Assembly (NCBI GenBank): GCA_963575745.1
Contig: CAUYUJ010000053.1
Span: forward strand, 62,001 to 118,929
Origin: Prorocentrum cordatum
Lineage: Eukaryota
DNA length: 56,929 bases
Direction of reading: 5' to 3'
Shown here: one piece after another, positions 3,058 through 47,350 of the stretch
Position numbering within the stretch: the stretch's first letter is position 1
How the letters are laid out: every line of letters begins with the position of its first letter
The notes under the pieces: model-generated
What the model was told of the DNA's origin: nothing
What the model saw: only the letters and a program-made list of their open reading frames with translations
The model's database searches: none
Made by a program: the position numbers and the translations under genes

Positions 3058-3079
3058 TCCGTAACCATTTTGGCTCAAG
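3058..3079 (+). other. Dinoflagellate spliced-leader (DinoSL) copy: relic SL or SL RNA exon
   Basis: TCCGTAACCATTTTGGCTCAAG versus consensus DCCGTAGCCATTTTGGCTCAAG is 21/22 identical, and it is followed by GT. Confidence 0.85.
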
Positions 3080-8957: not shown

Positions 8958-10292
8958 GAGTAGAGTCGGCCCGGATTAGTAGGTCGACCCTGCAAGCTCA
9001 AGGGTACCCTTGTGTCCTGTGCCTCGCTTCGCGTGCTCTCTTACACTCCAATGGCGATGTTGCCTTCGGAATGGTCTCGTGTCCTCTCGCGTGTCCTCTC
9101 CAATCAAGTCCGACTGTAGATGGGGTCGGAGGATCGCGCCGCATCGCCGATGCAACGACGATGCGGCTCGATGTGGAGCCCGATTTGCTTCACGTCGACG
9201 TTGCCGATGCATCGCCGACGTCGACGATGCATCGCTGGTGCATCGCAGCTGCATTGGCGATGCGGTGCGATCCTCTGACTCAAGAGGCCTCTATTGATGG
9301 AAGGGTCTGACCCTGAACGTGTCTGATGCCTGCGGGCGCTGTGCGCCGTTGAAAGAGGCCACGTTGAAGACACTACTTCAGGGACTCTTGATGATTTTCC
9401 GTTTCGTGCACTGAGAATTTGTCATTCAGGACATTTTGCCGCCAAGAGTGCGTTCCGTCTCTGCGCCCAACAGGCGCCCTGTCACACGTGCGTGTCAGAC
9501 ACACTTTGCCAATTTTACCATAACTAGTACTATCCAGCTGCCTCCGGCAATTCTGCCACCGTGCCAGCGCAGCATCTGGGATGCCAACTATTCGAGAAGG
9601 CAAAAGGGGGCCCTGTTGGGGGCTTTTTGGGGCAGCAGGCTCGAATTCTTGGTTCCTGTTCCCACTCATGGGCCTTTTTGGGGGGCCGTCTTGGGGCCCT
9701 CTTGGGCAGTCTTGGGTGCCTCTTGTGCCGTCTTGGAGCTCTCTTTGGAGCTTCTTAAGCCGTCTCGGGGGACTCCTGTTTGGGGGCCTCTTGGGCCGTC
9801 TTGGAGCTTCGGCAACTCGAAACGGCGAGAACACAAAATACATTGAAAACGTGATCGAACATCCAAGGGTTTTGCCTCTCGGGGCCCTTTTGGGGGCCTC
9901 TTGGGGGCCTCTTGTGGCCCTCGTGGGGCCTCCTGAGCCATCTTGGGGCGGAAGGTTCGAATTGTCGGTTCGTGTTCATCCTCTTGGGTCGTCTTGGGTC
10001 CGTCTTGAGGCCCTCTTGGGCATTTGGGCGCCTCCGGGGCCGTCTTGGAGCCCTCTTGGGCCTTCTTGGGGGCCTGTTGGGCCGTCTTGGGGCAGTCCTG
10101 GCGGCCTCTTGGGTCATCTTGGGACGCGGGAAGTTCGAAAAGGCGAGAACCCAAACCATATTGAACAATTCGTGAACCACCCATTTCTCCCAACCATCCT
10201 GTGGTTCCTCGTATTGAAGAGACAGCGCCCCGCGTCACTCCTCCTCCTCCCGCTGCCCCCTCCTCCCTCTCTCCTCCCGCTGCCCCCCCCTC

Positions 10293-11040
10293 ACTTTGGC
10301 ACACCCCTCACACGTTTCGTGGTCCCATAGGGAGCTCCACCGAAGGCCCCAGTGGCAGGGTCCGCATGCGGATCCCCGCCCATTTCGGCAGACCCCTCGC
10401 ACGTTTCGTGGCTCCATAGGGAGATCTACCGAAGGCCCCAGTGGCAGGGTCCGCATGCGGTTCCCCGCCCATTTCGGCACACCCCTCACACGGTTCGTGG
10501 CTCCATAGGGAGCTCCACCGAAAACCCTAGTGGCAGGGTCCGCATGCGGTTCCCCGCCCATTTCGGCACACCCCTCACACGTTTCGTGGCTCCACAAGGA
10601 GCTCCACCGAAGGCCCTAGTGGCAGGGTCCGCATGCGGTTCCCCGCCCATTTCGGCACACCCCTCACACGTTTCGTGGCTCCATAGGGAGATCTACCGAA
10701 GGCCCCAGTGGCAGGGTCCGCATGCGGTTCCCCGCCCATTTCGGCACACCCCTCACACGGTTCGTGGCTCCATAGGGAGCTCCACCGAAAACCCTAGTGG
10801 CAGGGTTCGCATGCGGTTCCCCGCCCATTTCGGCACACCCCTCACACGTTTCGTGGCTCCATAGGGAGATCTACCGAAGGCCCCAGTGGCAGGGTCCGCA
10901 TGCGGTTCCCCGCCCATTTCGGCACACCCCTCACACGGTTCGTGGCTCCATAGGGAGCTCCACCGAAAACCCTAGTGGCAGGGTTCGCATGCGGTTCCCC
11001 GCCCATTTCGGCACACCCCTCACACGGTTCGTGGGCCCAT
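10293..11040 (-). repeat. 89-bp satellite array (~8 units, homogeneous)
   Basis: GGCACACCCCTCACACG...CCCGCCCATTTC recurs with period 89 (10298, 10387, ...). Confidence 0.95.
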
Positions 11041-11839
11041 GGGGAGGGTCGCCGAACGATGGACCCAGAACGCGGTATCCACACATGCATTGGACGGGTC
11101 CTTCGTCAGGCTAAGTTTTGCCTCTCGGGGCCCTCTTGGAGAGGCTCTTGGGGCAATCCTTGGACGCCTCGACGGTTTCAAGCGATCTTGGGCCGTCTTG
11201 AGGCCAAAGTTCCTTGTCTAGGAGCGATCTCGGGCCGCCTTGGGGACATCTGGGCCTCGGGAGTGCCAATCTGTTGTATTTTGCGAGGAGTTGTGGCTCG
11301 GGCAGAGGGCGGGGGTGGTGCACGCAGGTGGGTGCTTCCTGAGGGAAGGGGTTGCCTTCAGAAAATTACAGCAGCCCTACCATACAGCCCGGTGCTTTGA
11401 AGGTCGCACGACGCGCGGAATTGGGAGTAGAGCAGTCTTTGTGTAGCATGGTTAAGACATGCGGCAGATGTTTCGGCCCAGCCCGCAGGCGGGAGCGGCT
11501 GGATTTCCGAGGATATCCACAATTTTAGAGCCCACGTCTTCGCGAACGCATCGCGCCTGACCCGCTATTTCAATCTGTCTGAGTTGAGCTCCGTGCCAAC
11601 ACGCTGCGTTTTGTGTGCTGCGTGTTGGGGCAGCTGGGGGGCCTTGCCGAAGTGCACCTGTCGTGGCACGCCCCCGGCCATGACTTTTTGTTGCCGTGTG
11701 CCTGCCCCGTGCAAGGCGGATCATGACTTTTCGATGCCGTGTGCCTGCCCCGTGCAAGGCGCGCCCGAGCCAGCCAATCCCTGGCGCACGCTTTCCTCGG
11801 CTTGTGTGGTCTGGAACTTCCAGCTCGAGCAGTCAATTT

Positions 11840-14268: not shown

Positions 14269-14368
14269 NNNNNNNNNNNNNNNNNNNNNNNNNNNNNNNN
14301 NNNNNNNNNNNNNNNNNNNNNNNNNNNNNNNNNNNNNNNNNNNNNNNNNNNNNNNNNNNNNNNNNNNN
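14269..14368. other. Assembly gap (100 N)
   Basis: Run of N. Confidence 1.
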
Positions 14369-25888: not shown

Positions 25889-27614
25889 TTGTTGGGCGCC
25901 TAGCCTGGGAGAAGAGAAAGGGTGAGGGCCTGCGGCGAAGGGAGACCGCAGCCTCCACGACCTCCCCTCGTGCCCTCCACCTAACCACCGCCGCCACTTC
26001 CTGCCAGCCAGCAGCCAGCAACGCCTCCAGCCAAGGGGGCCACACCGTAGCCACCAGCATGCACGAGCACGACAACCATGCTTCTACCCCTCCTGTGTTT
26101 GCTGCCGACGGCAGGACACGGAGGCGGGACGGCCCCACGACGGCCAGACGGCCGCTTCAAAACCCACAGCCGACGATGAGACATGCGGCGGACCGTCTGG
26201 GCTACCAACTCATGGCACGCTTACGGCTCATTCCACACAATACGACGCTATCCCATAAAGGCCCCTACGCCAGGGCGGCAAGGGGACTCTGAACCAGTGA
26301 GGGCAAGAGCCTCTCCTGAGGCCCAAGCATACGGTTCTTGTGCAATGTCTGTTGCGAGGGACAAGCACAAGATTGGCGGAATTGGGCACTCTCACATCAT
26401 TAGACTAGTGTCTACCAGCGCAGCAGTTCCTGATCGCCTGACTCGAGAGGGGAGGCTGCCCATTTTCACAATGGGACATCGACGCCCACTTCACACATAC
26501 AGCGCGCTATGACCCATGCCGTCCACGCCTTCCTATGCCCGCTGCCGGCGTGAGGACATGGAGGGGGTGCGGCCACCAGCGCGTCGACCACCAATCCGCT
26601 TCAAAATCCGCTGCAGGCGGTGGAACATGTGGCGGATTGAGCGGACTGCAGCATGCACTAGCACATCCAAGCGCTCACAGCCACGCCTGTCCACCCCCTC
26701 CCATGTCTACTGCCGGCGTCAGGACATGAAGGGGGATCAGCTACACAGCAGACAGCCAGCCCACGCCCACCCCGATCAACAACATCTAGAACGACGAGCG
26801 GCAAGCGAGGAACAACCACACCAAGACCAACTCGCCCATGCACCCAGAATTCGATCAACAAAAACGTCGTCAAGGTCACCGACAAGAGTATGCGACGAGT
26901 GAGAGAAGGACAACCTACGGCGGAGACCAGGAGGACTGGGGCGCAGTAGCACGTCGAAGCATTGCGACACGTGGCAGCGAAACCTTGCCGGCATAAACAG
27001 CATCGGACACAATCATGTCCCTCATCATCCTTCCCCCCCGATCCCGCATCGCCGGTGACCCAATGACCCTGTGCTTTTTGCTGCAGTCTTGGCTCAAGGT
27101 ACCTCGCAGGGGCGGAAGCCATGCGACCATGCTGGGAGCTTACAGACCCTCACGTCCAAGGCCATCCCCCCATTAACTCGAGCTGCCACGGGGCGATACC
27201 TAAATCAGGTTCGTCCGCCCGCGCGAGTGGAGCTCGCCAGGCCGGCCGCGGGGGGAGTTGATTTAGTCATCCCCCCGGCCCACTTCTGACCCACAGTTTC
27301 GCCGCAGCTGTTGTGGGTTGGCTCAAGTGAAAAGTTTCGCGGCCCGCTCGCCCGGCGCGCGCGCCCTCCCTGGCGCTCTCCCCCGGCCGGCCCGCCCCTT
27401 CATATTCTGCTGTTCGCCCAAGCTTAGCGGACACACTACCATATTCATTTAGCCATGGCACGGAGGGGTCCATCACCTACTTTGAAGATGAACCTGAGTA
27501 AGAGCGTACTTCGGGAAGAAGACGAGGAGTTATACTTACGAGACGAACGTGATCTCATGTTACCGGTCAGCATGGTCAAAAAACACAAATCAACAATGAG
27601 TTGGCACATATATT

Positions 27615-28265
27615 AGGATGAGGAGGAGGCGGAGGAGGAGGAGGAGGATGAGGAGGAGGAGGAGGAGGCATGCAGGAGGAGGAGGAGGAGGAGGAGGAGG
27701 AGGAGGAGGCGGAGGTGGGAGGAGGAGTGGAGGAGGAGGAGGAGGAGGAGGAGGAGGAGCAGGGAGGGAGGAGGAGACGACCCAGAGCGCCGCGCCCAGT
27801 GCGCCCGCTTCCACCCCGAGATCAAGGAGCGGGACAGGGCGGCGCTGGTGGCGGCTGGGCTCCGCGAGCCCCCGCCGTCGCCGACGCCCCTGGCGCCCCA
27901 GCAGCTGGGGCAGCAGGGCGCCAGGAGCCGCGGCGCCGCCCCTCGGCGACTTCGAGAACCGACAGTGGGGTGGCGAGGGTCGAGGGGCATCGAGGATCGA
28001 GGAGGAGGATCGATGGTCGGCGGCCGGGGAGGAGGGTCGAGGATCGGGGATCGAGGGGGAGGAGGAGGAGGAGGCGGAGGAGGAGGAGGAGGCGGAGGAG
28101 GAGGAGGAGGAGGAGGAGGAGGAGGAAGAGGAGGAGGAGGAGGGCTCACGCACAGCATAATGGCCCTACCCAACACTTGCGCGAGGAGGACGAGGAGGAG
28201 GAGGAGGAGGAGGAGAAAGAGGATCGAGGAGGGGTGTCGAGGAGGAGGATGAGGATGAGAGGATG

Positions 28266-28361
<96 letters not shown>

Positions 28362-29290
28362 CGATGACGATGATGATGATGATGATGCTGATGATGATGA
28401 CGATGATGATGATGATAGTGATGATGATGATGTCGATGACGATGATGACAATGACGATGACGATGAACATGATGATGGTGATGATGTTGACGATGCTGAT
28501 TCGTATGATGATGGTGCGGGTGACGATTGTGTTGGTGATGATGATGACGCTGATGATGAAACGGATGATGTTGAGGATGATGGCGATGATGATGTTGTTG
28601 ATGATGTTGGTGATGCGATGGTAAAGGTGATGGTGATGTTGATCGTGACGGTGATGGTGATGCGGATGGTGATGATGCGGATGACGACGTTGATGATGCT
28701 GATAATGATGCTGATGCGGCTGCTGATGCTGATGCTGATGCTGATGCTGGCGATGATGACGATCATGGGTGTGCTGCTGATGATGATTATGTTGATGACG
28801 ATGCTGATGATGATGGTGGTGGTGATCATGATGCTGATGATGGTTACGCTGCTGGTGATGATGAGGATGATGATGGTGATGATGAAGATGCTGATATGAT
28901 GCGGAGGAAGAGGAGTAGAAGGGAGGAGGAGGAGGTAAAGGAGGAATAGGACCAGTGTAAATCCAAGAACCATCAACGACGTTGAAGCAAACCATCTTTC
29001 CAAGGTGTCGGGGCCAAGGGTGGCCTCGGGCGGTGGGTGTCTGTTCAACGGGAGGAGGAGGGAGGAGGAAAAGACAGAGGAGAAGGAGGAGGATGAGGAG
29101 GAGGAGGAGGAGGAGGGGGAGGAGAAGGAGTAGCATGAGGAGGAGGAGGAGGAGGAAGAGGAGGAGGAGGAGGAGGAGGAGGAGGAGGAGGAGGAGGGAC
29201 ATCGAGGATCGAGGAGGAAGGTCGGTGAGGATCGAGGATCAAGGAAGAGGATCGGTCCTCCTCGATCCTCGAGCCCCTCGACAGGGGGCC
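27615..29290. repeat. Compound microsatellite block: (GGA)n, GAGGATC repeats, ~630-bp (GAT)n
   Basis: Directly visible. Short unique inserts at 28142-28180 and 28940-29003. Confidence 0.9.
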
Positions 29291-32916: not shown

Positions 32917-33085
32917 TCGGGGGTTCCTAGAAGTGCCCCTGGCCCAAGGTGCCCCCAGCTTTTCGCTCCATTTTGGAGCCCCTGGGGCCCTCTGAGCCTA
33001 GTGAGGGGTGCTCTGGAGGCCGCCGGGCCCCCCCCCGAGAATCCTGGGGGCACCTTGGGCCAGGGGCACTTCTAGCAACACCCGA
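32917..33085. mobile_element. MITE family I
   Basis: TIR TCGGGGGTTCCTAGAAGTGCCCCTGGCCCAAGGTG; perfect TSD AACTT. A solo right end is at ~43360-43392. Confidence 0.9.
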
Positions 33086-33180
33086 AACTTGGAGGGAGGA
33101 TTTGCTTCAACGTCATTGTTGCTACTGGGGTTTACACTGGTCCGACTCCTCCTTTTGATCCTCCTCTTCCTCCTCCTCCG

Positions 33181-33257
<77 letters not shown>

Positions 33258-33276
33258 ACATCAACATCAACATCAA

Positions 33277-33308
<32 letters not shown>

Positions 33309-33390
33309 CCATCACCATCACCATCACCATCATCATCATCATCAGCATCATCACCAGCATCATCATCATCAGCATCACCATCACTATCAC

Positions 33391-34185
33391 CACCCGGGCT
33401 CCGCCCAGGCCTCCGAGGAGAAACAAAAACGCAGACGGATATCTATTGATGTAGCCATCGTGTGGAAACAACCAACCAGGTGGTGCATCATGGCGGACTG
33501 CTGGGGTGACAACTCAACGGTGGTCGGCTGAATCAACAGGACGCTCCGGATCAATTCGCCGTACTACCGGGCCTTGGTCTCCACAGTGCAGACACGTCTC
33601 TGGGAACTGTGTAACAACTTCCCCCTCCGCACGGCCAGGCGCGGTGGTCTCTGGTTCCGTCACAACCTCCGGGAGGGCAATATCGTTGCCGACCTGAGGG
33701 CGACGAAGGCAATCCAAGACCGCCAAGATTCCACCTCGGATTTCAGTGCTGGCTTGCACGTCGACCCCACCAGACCCATGAAACTCCAGTGCAGCTTCGA
33801 CGGAGGCAAGCAAGGTCCTCTAGCAGGCTGTGGTTGGCATATGACGTGTCGGGACAATGCTTCCGGAGAGTTCCGCACCCTATGGCAAGCGTCAGTTTTC
33901 CTCCTTGGCGCCACCTCCACTGAAGCGGGGCTCCGAGCGGCCGCCTCGTTAGTCAAAGAATTGTCTCTCGCAGTTCGTCTTTCTAGATCCAGGATCGTAG
34001 CGCACGCAGCAGCGACCAGGTGACAACTATTGACATGACCACCCCACTCCAGGACAGCGCTGGGGTTGACGGTCTGGGAATCCTGGTGCCTCGCACATGC
34101 TAGCATGCCTCTCCCGTCTCATTGTTGCCATTCTCGACCTCGAGATACACCGGCGGAAATGCACAAACATCATCATCATCATCAT
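33391..34185 (+). mobile_element. 5'-truncated non-LTR retrotransposon 3' end: RNase H-like ORF remnant, 3' UTR, (CAT)6 tail
   Basis: One frame from 33391 to 34023 with one internal stop (TGA 33529-33531). Motifs GDNSTVVG*IN, FRHNLREGNIVADLRA, SFDGG..AGCGW, TSTEAGLRAA. (CAT)n lies on both sides. Confidence 0.75.
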
Positions 34186-35009
34186 TAACATCTTTATCGT
34201 AGTCCTCCACCTCCCCCTCCTCCTACATCCTCTTCCCTCGCTCGTCCTCAGGAGGTCTCCTCTCTGCCCCCAGGTTCCCTGACCAGTCCCTGAAAGTAGG
34301 ATAAAGGCCATCGAAGAAGTTTCTGAGCCCCAAAAACAACTTCTCGGAAGGCGCGCGGGCTTCTGAGAAGTCCCGCCCCCATCTGAGAAGGCCTTCTCCT
34401 TCTCACTTCCCCCCCTTCGCTCGCCGCCGAAGCCGGCTTCGGAAAACCCTGAACTTCAACTCGCCCTTCGGAGGAGGGAGATGCGACGCCAACACCACCA
34501 GGGGGCCCACCTCCATCGAGGAGGTCCACGATGCCTCCCCGAGCTGGAGGCTGGGGACGTCTCGAGCGAGAGGGGGGGACCACACCACCATGGAGGCCTC
34601 CCTTGCTCTTCGCATATCCTCGCCCTGTTGGTGTTGGAGTCGCCTTTCCTTTGTTCCTGGGAAGAGGGAAGAGGGACGAGGCAGGTTGCGCGAACCATGC
34701 CGCAGGGCATGGGGGGAGAGGAGGTTCCCACGAAGCCCGAGGGGCGCCCGTAGATCGTGTGTGTCCCTCTTCTCTTCCCTCCTCTTCCTGCTCCTCCTCC
34801 TCTTCGCCCTCTCGCCTCCCCCCCGCTCCTCAATCCTCGCCCTGTTGGTGTTGGTGTCGCCTTCCCTTGTTCCCAGCCCCCTCCCCGTTGGCGGGGCCCG
34901 TGCGCGTGCCAGCCGCTGGCGGCAGGAGCGGCGGGCACCACGACCCGTTCGTGCCGGAGCCCAGGGCGGCCTCGGGGCGGCGGGTGTCTCTCTTCAGCGG
35001 GAGGGGGAG

Positions 35010-46329: not shown

Positions 46330-47350
46330 GTGGACGCATGCGAACCCTGCCGCTGGGGCCTTGGTGGGGCTCCCTATGGGGCCCCAAAGCGTGCGAGGGG
46401 TGTGCCGACATGGGCGGAGGGACGCATGCGAACCCTGCCCTTGGGACCTTCGGTGGAGCTCCTCATGGGGCCACGAAGCATGTTAGGGGTTCGCCGACAT
46501 GGGCGGGGAAACGCATGCGAACCCTGCCACTGGGGCCTTCGGCGGAGCTCCTGGTAGGGCCACGAAACGTGTGAGGGGTGTGCCGAAACGGGAGCGCATG
46601 CGAACCTTGCCGTTGGGGCCTTCGGTGGAGTTCCCCATGGGGCCACGAAACGTGTGACGGGTGCGCCGGAATGGGCGGGGGGACGCGTGCGAACCCTGCC
46701 ACTGGGGCCTTCGGCGGAGCTCCCTATGGGGCCAAGGGGCGTGTGAGGGGTGTGCCGAAACTGGCGGGGGGACGCATGCGAACCCTGCCACCAGGGCCTT
46801 CGGTGGAGCTCCTAGTGGGGCCACGAAGCGTGTGAGGGGTGTGCAGAAATGGGCGGGGTTGACGCATGCTAACCGCTGCCACTGGGGCCTTCGGCGGAGC
46901 TCCATATGGGGCCCCGAAGCGTGTGAGGGGTGTGCCGAAATGGGCGGGGGGACGCATGCGAAGCGCTGCCATTGGGGCCTTCGGTGGAGCCCATTATGGG
47001 GCCACGAAGCGTGTGAGGGGTGTGCCGAAATGGGCGGGGGGACGCATGTGAACATTGCCACTGGGGCCTTCTGCGGAGCTCCCTATGGAGCCACGAAGCG
47101 TGTGAGGGGTGTGCCGACACTGGCGGGGGGACGCATGCGAACCCTGCCACCGTGGCCTTCGGTGAAGGTCCTTATGGGGCTACGAAGCATGTGAGGGGTA
47201 TGCCGAAATTGGCGGGGTTGACGCATGCTAACCGCTGCCGGTGGGGCCACGGTGTGTCTCCCTATGGGGCCACGAGCCGTGTGAGGGGTGTGCAGACATG
47301 GGCGGGGGGACGCATGCGAACCCTGCCGCTGGGGCCTTCGGTGGAGCTCC
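46330..47350 (+). repeat. 89-bp satellite array (~11 units, diverged), opposite orientation to 10293-11040
   Basis: GACGCATGCGAACCCTGCCACTGGGGCCTTCGGTGGAGCTCC recurs with period ~89. Confidence 0.93.

Follow-up and report, generated by a model that had tools for sequence, protein, structure and literature searches.

Positions 33400 to 34023 on the forward strand of a 56,929-nucleotide stretch of the Prorocentrum cordatum genome (assembly GCA_963575745.1, contig CAUYUJ010000053.1, positions 62,001 to 118,929; this whole stretch is called the window here) are very likely the decayed, 5'-truncated 3' end of a long interspersed nuclear element (LINE, a non-long-terminal-repeat or non-LTR retrotransposon) with an endonuclease and a reverse transcriptase (RT), in whose family the open reading frame (ORF) ends in a circularly permuted ribonuclease H (RNase H). 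The RNase H motifs stand in swapped order in the DNA, this order and the catalytic residues are conserved among the relatives of the ORF, the two pieces of the domain match solved RNases H in exchanged positions, and a long relative places them at the end of an apparent LINE ORF. For the family as a whole we favour, with less assurance than for the fragment itself, a LINE clade, probably of dinoflagellates, with a natural, permuted and catalytically competent type-1 RNase H that arose by duplication and truncation and has its chain ends between helix A and strand 4. The copy in the window is a dead fragment with no expected function.

Canonical RNase H is built of the elements beta1-3, alphaA, beta4, alphaB-D, beta5 and alphaE, with the sheet order 3-2-1-4-5 and beta1 parallel to beta4. 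In the ORF translation a single plus-strand frame of the window (33400-34023) reads GDN, an in-frame stop, WFRHNLREGNIVAD, a linker, SFDGG, TSTEAG and a terminal stop, and the translation of 33469-34023 (+) contains QPTRWCIMADCWGDNSTVVG, the first stop, INRTLRINSPYYRALVSTVQTRLWELCNNFPLRTARRGGLWFRHNLREGNIVADLRATKAIQDRQDSTSDFSAGLHVDPTRPMKLQCSFDGGKQGPLAGCGWHMTCRDNASGEFRTLWQASVFLLGATSTEAGLRAAASLVKELSLAVRLSRSRIVAHAAATR and the last stop. The full series of motifs along 33400-34023 (+) is SAQASEEKQKRRR, then CWGDNSTVVG, stop and INRT, then WFRHNLREGNIVADLRATKAI, about 22 residues, KLQCSFDGGKQGPLAGCGW, TSTEAGLRAAASLV and finally AAATR and stop. The parts of the fragment are listed below, where labels such as P0001 denote related proteins and 3u3g, 4e19 and 3hst are solved RNases H.

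33181..33384, no strand: imperfect (CAT)n microsatellite at the 5' truncation point, a flank outside the element (Tandem Repeats Finder: period 6, 33.8 copies, score 315).
33400..34023 (+): what remains of a non-LTR retrotransposon ORF, a dead fragment truncated at the 5' side and made up of the final ~205 codons and the stop (tblastn, translation).
33400..33486 (+): Lys/Arg-rich spacer (beginning SAQASEEKQKRRR) which precedes the RNase H domain in relatives, aligned to the K/R-rich stretch of P0001, P0018 and P0015.
33487..33528 (+): equivalent of strand beta4 and of the start of helix alphaB, corresponding to strand E35-41 of P0002 and matching 3u3g from residue 72.
33505-33513 (+): GDN, counterpart of the E. 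coli D70 motif, with G and D each kept in 20/22 aligned relatives.
33529..33531 (+): in-frame TGA stop, the first lesion, where 21/26 aligned relatives have W.
33538-33540 (+): Arg codon in the N-G turn, the third departure, where 24/26 aligned relatives have Gly.
33652..33714 (+): equivalent of beta5 and alphaE, WFRHNLREGNIVADLRATKAI, with the counterparts of E. coli H124 and D134 (conservation, PDB alignment).
33715..33780 (+): linker of ~22 codons that runs from the end of alphaE, the former C-terminus, to the start of beta1, the former N-terminus, seen as variable columns between conserved blocks.
33781..33912 (+): equivalents of beta1, beta2 and beta3, aligned to the DGG region of 3u3g (residues 7-62) and to strands E132-143, E146-156 and E162-171 of P0002.
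33799-33801 (+): Asp of KLQCSFDGG, the E. coli D10 counterpart, followed by a G.GW turn; relatives keep F in 34/36, D in 36/36, G in 36/36 and G in 35/36.
33913..34020 (+): equivalent of helix alphaA (beginning TSTEAGLRAAASLV) with a short C-terminal tail, aligned to T..AE..A of solved RNases H and to helix H177-204 of P0002.
33928..33930 (+): Gly codon at the catalytic Glu site (E. coli E48 counterpart), the second lesion, where 33/34 aligned relatives, the closest one (P0001) included, have E.
34021..34023 (+): terminal TGA stop with no second beta4/GDS strand after it; P0001 ends at the same position and most relatives end soon after alphaA.

The block at 33652..33714 is conserved, with H in 34/35, R in 35/35, E in 34/35, N in 35/35, A in 35/36 and D in 35/36 of the relatives, and through the family profile it aligns to the H..RE.N..AD motif of 3u3g, 4e19 and 3hst. 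An initial annotation made from the letters alone had described a single frame with the motifs in swapped order, and the translation matches it in coordinates and motifs. The two probable decay changes that it had named, W to stop and E to G, are the first and second lesions listed above; its linker of ~20 residues is found at ~22 codons, and the ORF does end, as it had noted, before a second D70-type motif.

The window copy resembles P0001 (residues 329-533) at 64% identity (tblastn, E 7e-70), and when 8 long family proteins were searched against the window by tblastn all matches were confined to 33400-34017. The 5' truncation point corresponds to P0001 residue 329 and is adjoined by the microsatellite; 5' truncation of a genomic copy is a LINE feature, and this copy shows it. 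No further copy of the stretch was found elsewhere in the window by blastn or tblastn, and no RT, endonuclease or RNase H domain was found at E<=0.1 by Pfam in the 130 ORFs between 23.9 and 42.7 kb (stop-to-stop, >=60 aa, with those of residue entropy <3.6 bits left out). The copy cannot work because its upstream part is gone, a stop lies in alphaB and Gly replaces the catalytic Glu. Microsatellites bracket the fragment in mirrored order (33147-33384 and 34168-34249), with (TCC)n and (CAT)n upstream and (CAT)6 and a (TCC)n-like array downstream, the short (CAT)6 lying at 34168-34185, 145 nt past the stop. The (CAT)n array beside the fragment may be its tail, its target or a coincidence; microsatellites are dense throughout the window.

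A phmmer search with the 163-residue ORF of the window against 1.84 billion representative proteins returned 35 relatives at E<=1e-3, 3 of them at <=1e-10 and 1 at <=1e-30. P0001 (9e-65, 80% identity) and P0002 (2.1e-19, 46%) rank highest, and all 35 align collinearly with the window ORF through both motif blocks. Four further proteins (P0037-P0040) came from a profile search, bringing the family to ~40, and a search for longer family proteins yielded one, P0036; a word-indexed protein search with the window ORF gave no match. A search of sequencing runs found one DNA run with 0.43 of the sampled words and no RNA run among the matches listed.

Conservation within the family is concentrated at the catalytic positions. 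In a 38-row alignment the Asp of GD[SN] is kept in 21/23 rows, the His of RH in 36/37, the Asp of AD in 37/38, the Asp of FDGG in 38/38 and the Glu of AE in 33/36, at an overall identity of only ~23-37% (20-46% across divergent relatives). The window copy, unlike the family, lacks the full catalytic set, having Gly at the Glu position and the in-frame stop. Its closest relative P0001 keeps the catalytic Glu but matches only positions 39-83 of a hidden Markov model (HMM) of the first half of the domain, and it therefore has no in-frame GD[SN] strand there.

The window ORF alone matches no Pfam family, and because of this the RNase H assignment rests on its relatives. With an HMM built from a 23-row alignment (A1), a search of all PDB sequences retrieved the type-1 RNases H 3u3g_D (E 3.9e-9), 4e19_A (8.2e-9), 4h8k_A (2.1e-8) and 3hst_B (5.1e-8), each of the four matches being split into two swapped stretches. 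In 3u3g, profile positions 104-162 align to chain residues 7-62 (DGG to AE) and positions 4-80 to residues 72-138 (DS to H..RE.N..AD). Weaker rows of the same search cover one half each and include the RNase HI of Sulfolobus tokodaii, another RNase H chain and RT/RNase H chains of the retroviral type; two designed chlorophyll proteins at E ~0.02 were set aside as noise. Chance resemblance of the motifs was ruled out by the phmmer relatives together with these profile matches to PDB RNases H. Pfam RVT_3 (PF13456) matches 20/35 relatives at E<=0.1 and does so with the same geometry, the early part of the protein falling on profile positions 57-123 in 18 and the late part on 2-56 in 2 (P0008, P0012). 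The matches in P0006, P0009 and P0031 (3/35) are above the gathering cut-off, and so is that of P0038, which has the same geometry; PF00075 does not appear among the listed Pfam matches of the relatives. A feature search of the ESM Atlas with P0002 gave RVT_3 (0.92) and RNase_H (0.91) as the nearest clusters.

Each half was given its own HMM, and the two models were searched against 36 family proteins. Both halves were significant in 34, and in every one of these the beta4-to-alphaE half stands ahead of the beta1-to-alphaA half (34/34). No extra N-half upstream of the GD[SN] strand in these 34 scored better than an independent E-value (i-E) of 2, and in 8 of them the sequence ahead of the first half is 117 to 1090 residues long. 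The canonical order (beta1-beta2-beta3-alphaA-beta4-alphaB..alphaD-beta5-alphaE) was not encountered in the HMM order, nor in the PDB alignments, nor in two AlphaFold models. Since the chain order is rotated in every protein with both halves, the family is a permuted variant and not a standard RVT_3 member.

The predicted structures agree with this order. AlphaFold2 on P0002 (224 aa, with the 38-row alignment) gave a mean predicted local distance difference test (pLDDT) score of 88 and a predicted template modelling (pTM) score of 0.83, with the elements E35-41, H44-50, H59-77, E81-83, E91-93, H96-112, E116-119, E132-143, E146-156, E162-171 and H177-204, so that the model reads as the RNase H element list rotated to begin at beta4. 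The linker of the window corresponds to residues 113-131 of this model, with the short strand E116-119. For P0025 (559 aa) AlphaFold gave a model with a mean pLDDT of 74.8, in which residues 53-351 consist of helices and low-confidence coil without any beta strand, and residues 352-517, mostly at pLDDT >90, repeat the element order of the domain.

A test that does not depend on chain order was made by giving the P0002 halves (30-120 and 128-206) to ESMFold2 as separate chains, with no alignment. The halves docked with an interaction prediction score from aligned errors (ipSAE) of 0.73 versus 0.01 for the best of three controls, a mark that is reached by 51/78 solved complexes and 2/108 mismatched pairs. 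Contact agreement between runs was >=92% and partner pLDDT >=83. Contacts of residues 37-41 with 134-138 rise together, as in a parallel beta4-beta1 ladder, which would bring D42 beside D139. A102 and residue 106 contact D139, and residues 102, 106, 109 and 110 contact 148-150 and 169, placing alphaE across beta1-beta3, while contacts of 65 and 68 with 182 and 185 and of 39 with 188 position alphaA beside beta4 and the helix of the first half. Residues 34-43, 101-110, 131-143 and 178-182 are among those listed at the interface, and the acidic residues D42, D103, D139 and E181 all fall inside these ranges. A single domain with beta4-beta1 pairing is therefore what the models predict. The docking may well reflect the memory that the model has of RNase H structures; it would in that case still show likeness to RNase H, which is the point at issue.

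The context of the domain is given by P0036 (1263 aa), which has Exo_endo_phos at 19-235, RVT_1 at 539-747 (PF00078 is also given as a precomputed domain of this protein), the first half of the permuted domain at 1091-1172, the second half at 1184-1252 and its end at 1263. From this layout the family is probably the ORF of an endonuclease and RT non-LTR retrotransposon with the RNase H domain at the extreme C-terminus. The RT and the permuted RNase H are separated by a conserved stretch of ~250-300 residues, mostly helical and without a Pfam match (P0025, P0001, P0036), in which a W.R...WED....G..WR motif is common to P0015, P0017, P0018, P0026 and P0037. P0034 (908 aa) has the permuted RNase H block at 343-475, with a shortened N-half, and, at residues 590-716, a DAHP synthase domain (PF00793, E 8.7e-39); its gene model probably starts in a LINE fragment and continues into a gene of the host.

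Several results weigh against the permuted LINE RNase H proposed here. The window ORF has no Pfam match even at E<=10, 15/35 relatives have no RVT_3 match at E<=0.1 and only 3/35 are over the Pfam cut-off. Both LINE domains of P0036 fall slightly short of their cut-offs, RVT_1 with 28.7 bits versus 29.6 (E 1.3e-6) and the apurinic/apyrimidinic-type endonuclease Exo_endo_phos with 23.6 bits versus 24.5 (E 5.1e-5), and 23/36 of the proteins scanned for half order had also gone into the building of the half HMMs. A search for DNA of related copies in metagenome contigs gave 100 pattern matches and 0 confirmed with the alignment A3 as query, and 92 pattern matches and 0 confirmed with P0002. No duplication intermediate was seen among the relatives. 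On the structural side, the clustering of the four carboxylates is read from contact lists and not from coordinates, Foldseek against PDB gave no match at E<=0.001 (its top rows are PelC, with a template modelling score of ~0.3), and the sequential fold searches (Foldseek, VIA-align) do not place RNase H first. A permuted chain would be expected to behave in this way, and no positive evidence comes from it; sequential searches (Pfam on single members, Foldseek, VIA-align) detect at most one half.

The initial annotation had preferred a circularly permuted RNase H to two tandem domains, and the swapped profile matches, the constant order and the predicted single domain support that choice. A DG...AE half upstream of GDN, which would have spoken for tandem domains, is absent from the 34/34 proteins with both halves (at the i-E 2 limit), RVT_3 matches in two swapped segments do occur among the relatives, and the profile, RVT_3, AlphaFold and two-chain contacts favour an RNase H fold. 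It had also placed the domain at the end of a LINE-like element, which P0036 bears out for the family, whereas the window itself has only a truncated tail.

One full domain beside one truncated RNase H domain was considered and dropped, given the absence of an upstream N-half by HMM, the layout of P0036 and the model of P0025. A related idea is that the two pieces are leftovers of tandem domains, the first having lost its N-half and the second its C-half, which do not fold together and of which neither is functional. At the sequence level this looks the same as circular permutation, and tandem duplication is moreover the usual route to a permutation. Yet the hydrophobic core of half an RNase H sheet would then be exposed, while AlphaFold makes one compact unit of the 224-residue chain (pTM 0.83), the halves dock through beta4-beta1 pairing far better than any control (ipSAE 0.73 versus 0.01), and both halves are kept together, with the linker length, in 34/34 proteins; we regard such leftovers as improbable. 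More improbable still, to the point of being hardly credible, is that successive truncated copies in a tandem array were fused by gene models or assemblies, the 3' half of one being joined to the 5' half of its neighbour. Most relatives are indeed short predicted proteins from assemblies of metagenomes or sequencing runs, and the closest one, P0001, has no in-frame GD[SN] strand, its C-half HMM match covering 39-83 only. However, the window has the swapped order in contiguous DNA and in a single frame, 34 proteins (20-46% identity, three source collections) show this junction again, with a specific linker and without RT sequence separating the halves, and the ORF ends shortly past alphaA in nearly all relatives.

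Somewhat less remote, though still unlikely, is a non-catalytic relic, in which the permuted RNase H derivative would serve as a structural or nucleic-acid-binding module only and the elements would use the RNase H of the host. A parallel would be the 'connection' domain of retroviral RTs, a degenerate derivative of RNase H. Many LINE clades are not known to carry an RNase H, and most relatives here score under the Pfam RVT_3 cut-off. Against this, relatives that share 20-46% identity keep the His and all four acidic positions at rates of 21/23 to 38/38, and near-invariance of these positions is not expected of a purely structural module.

We hence prefer to see in the C-terminus of the LINE ORF a type-1 RNase H that belongs to the RVT_3, 'archaeal-like' kind and is permuted. 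Its chain would run from beta4 (GD[SN]) through alphaB/alphaD, beta5 and alphaE (H..RE.N..AD), over a ~20-residue linker, to beta1 (FDGG), beta2, beta3 and alphaA (T..AE), where it would end. The two halves are predicted to pack into one RNase H-like domain with the four acidic residues together. In active elements it would strip the RNA template off the RNA:DNA hybrid of target-primed reverse transcription, as family membership and residue conservation suggest. The permutation would most likely have arisen when the RNase H was duplicated in tandem and the outer halves were then lost.

The nearest solved kin are the type-1 'archaeal-like' RNases H (RVT_3), namely LC11-RNase H1 (3u3g), Halobacterium RNase H1 (4e19), S. 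tokodaii RNase HI (2ehg/3aly) and the N-domain of M. tuberculosis Rv2228c (3hst). The family shares with them the profile similarity (E 4e-9 to 5e-8), the motifs DGG, T..AE..A, GDS and H..RE.N..AD, the predicted secondary-structure elements and the predicted parallel beta1-beta4 pairing. In contrast to these enzymes, its chain runs beta4-alphaB-alphaD-beta5-alphaE-linker-beta1-beta2-beta3-alphaA, so that the new termini lie between alphaA and beta4 and a ~20-residue linker joins the old ones. The new chain ends, between helix A and strand 4, presumably fall inside the part of E. coli RNase H that is known as its early folding core.

Among retroelements, L1 LINEs of plants and oomycetes have, downstream of the RT, an archaeal-like RNase H (aRNH), for which modular acquisition has been described (Ustyantsev et al. 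2017, PMC5348765). In the accessible text of that study these elements are, like the family, non-LTR retrotransposons in which an RVT_3-type RNase H follows the RT, but their aRNH is described as an ordinary RNase H domain (PMC5348765). A term search of the same article returned 0 occurrences of 'permut', 'dinoflagellate', 'Alveolata' and 'Symbiodinium'. The CIRPIN survey of circular permutations (PNAS 2026, PMC13552848; preprint PMC12667903) includes, in its accessible passages, an RNase H-like permuted pair. These passages name no protein, organism or retroelement, and the pair may or may not belong to the present family, 'Ribonuclease H-like' being a very broad CATH superfamily. Our search of the literature, whose coverage of subscription journals was small, yielded no account of a retrotransposon or LINE with a permuted RNase H; the nearest is the CIRPIN pair.

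The window is ~60% G+C with dense microsatellites, and it contains other repeats. The arms of an inverted repeat at 28269-28503 and 33143-33377 are ~82-84% complementary and consist of (ATG)n and (CAT)n arrays. Beside these arms, similar peptides (CFNVV.G..YTGP.PP) are encoded on opposite strands by the ORFs 27613..29238 (-) and 33076..33531 (+), and the arms with their flanks may be a repeated unit which carries the microsatellite. Two arrays of an 89-bp tandem repeat, at 10183-11105 and 46347-47337, lie inverted ~36 kb apart and are 82-86% complementary. At 3059-3079 (+) the sequence CCGTAACCATTTTGGCTCAAG is a 21-nt match, with 1 mismatch, to the dinoflagellate spliced leader (0 in 100 shuffles), and it is possibly the spliced-leader relic of a retroposed transcript. 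Taken with the G+C content and the density of microsatellites, this match suggests that the genome is dinoflagellate-like. The 100 N at 14269-14368 are an assembly gap.

RNase H is among the best-studied enzyme folds and a standard model of protein folding, and the gain, loss and exchange of RNase H domains are used to reconstruct the evolution of retroelements. If our reading is true, the family would be the first natural permutant of this textbook model of folding and catalysis, and, being conserved, would offer a ready test of how chain order affects both. The Pfam blank on the window copy and the low rank of RNase H in the fold searches suggest that the RNase H of protist LINEs may be under-called by order-dependent tools, and it would follow that retroelement RNase H domains have been missed by order-dependent domain annotation. 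The arrangement of an endonuclease, an RT, a helical region and a permuted RNase H would define a recognisable LINE lineage.

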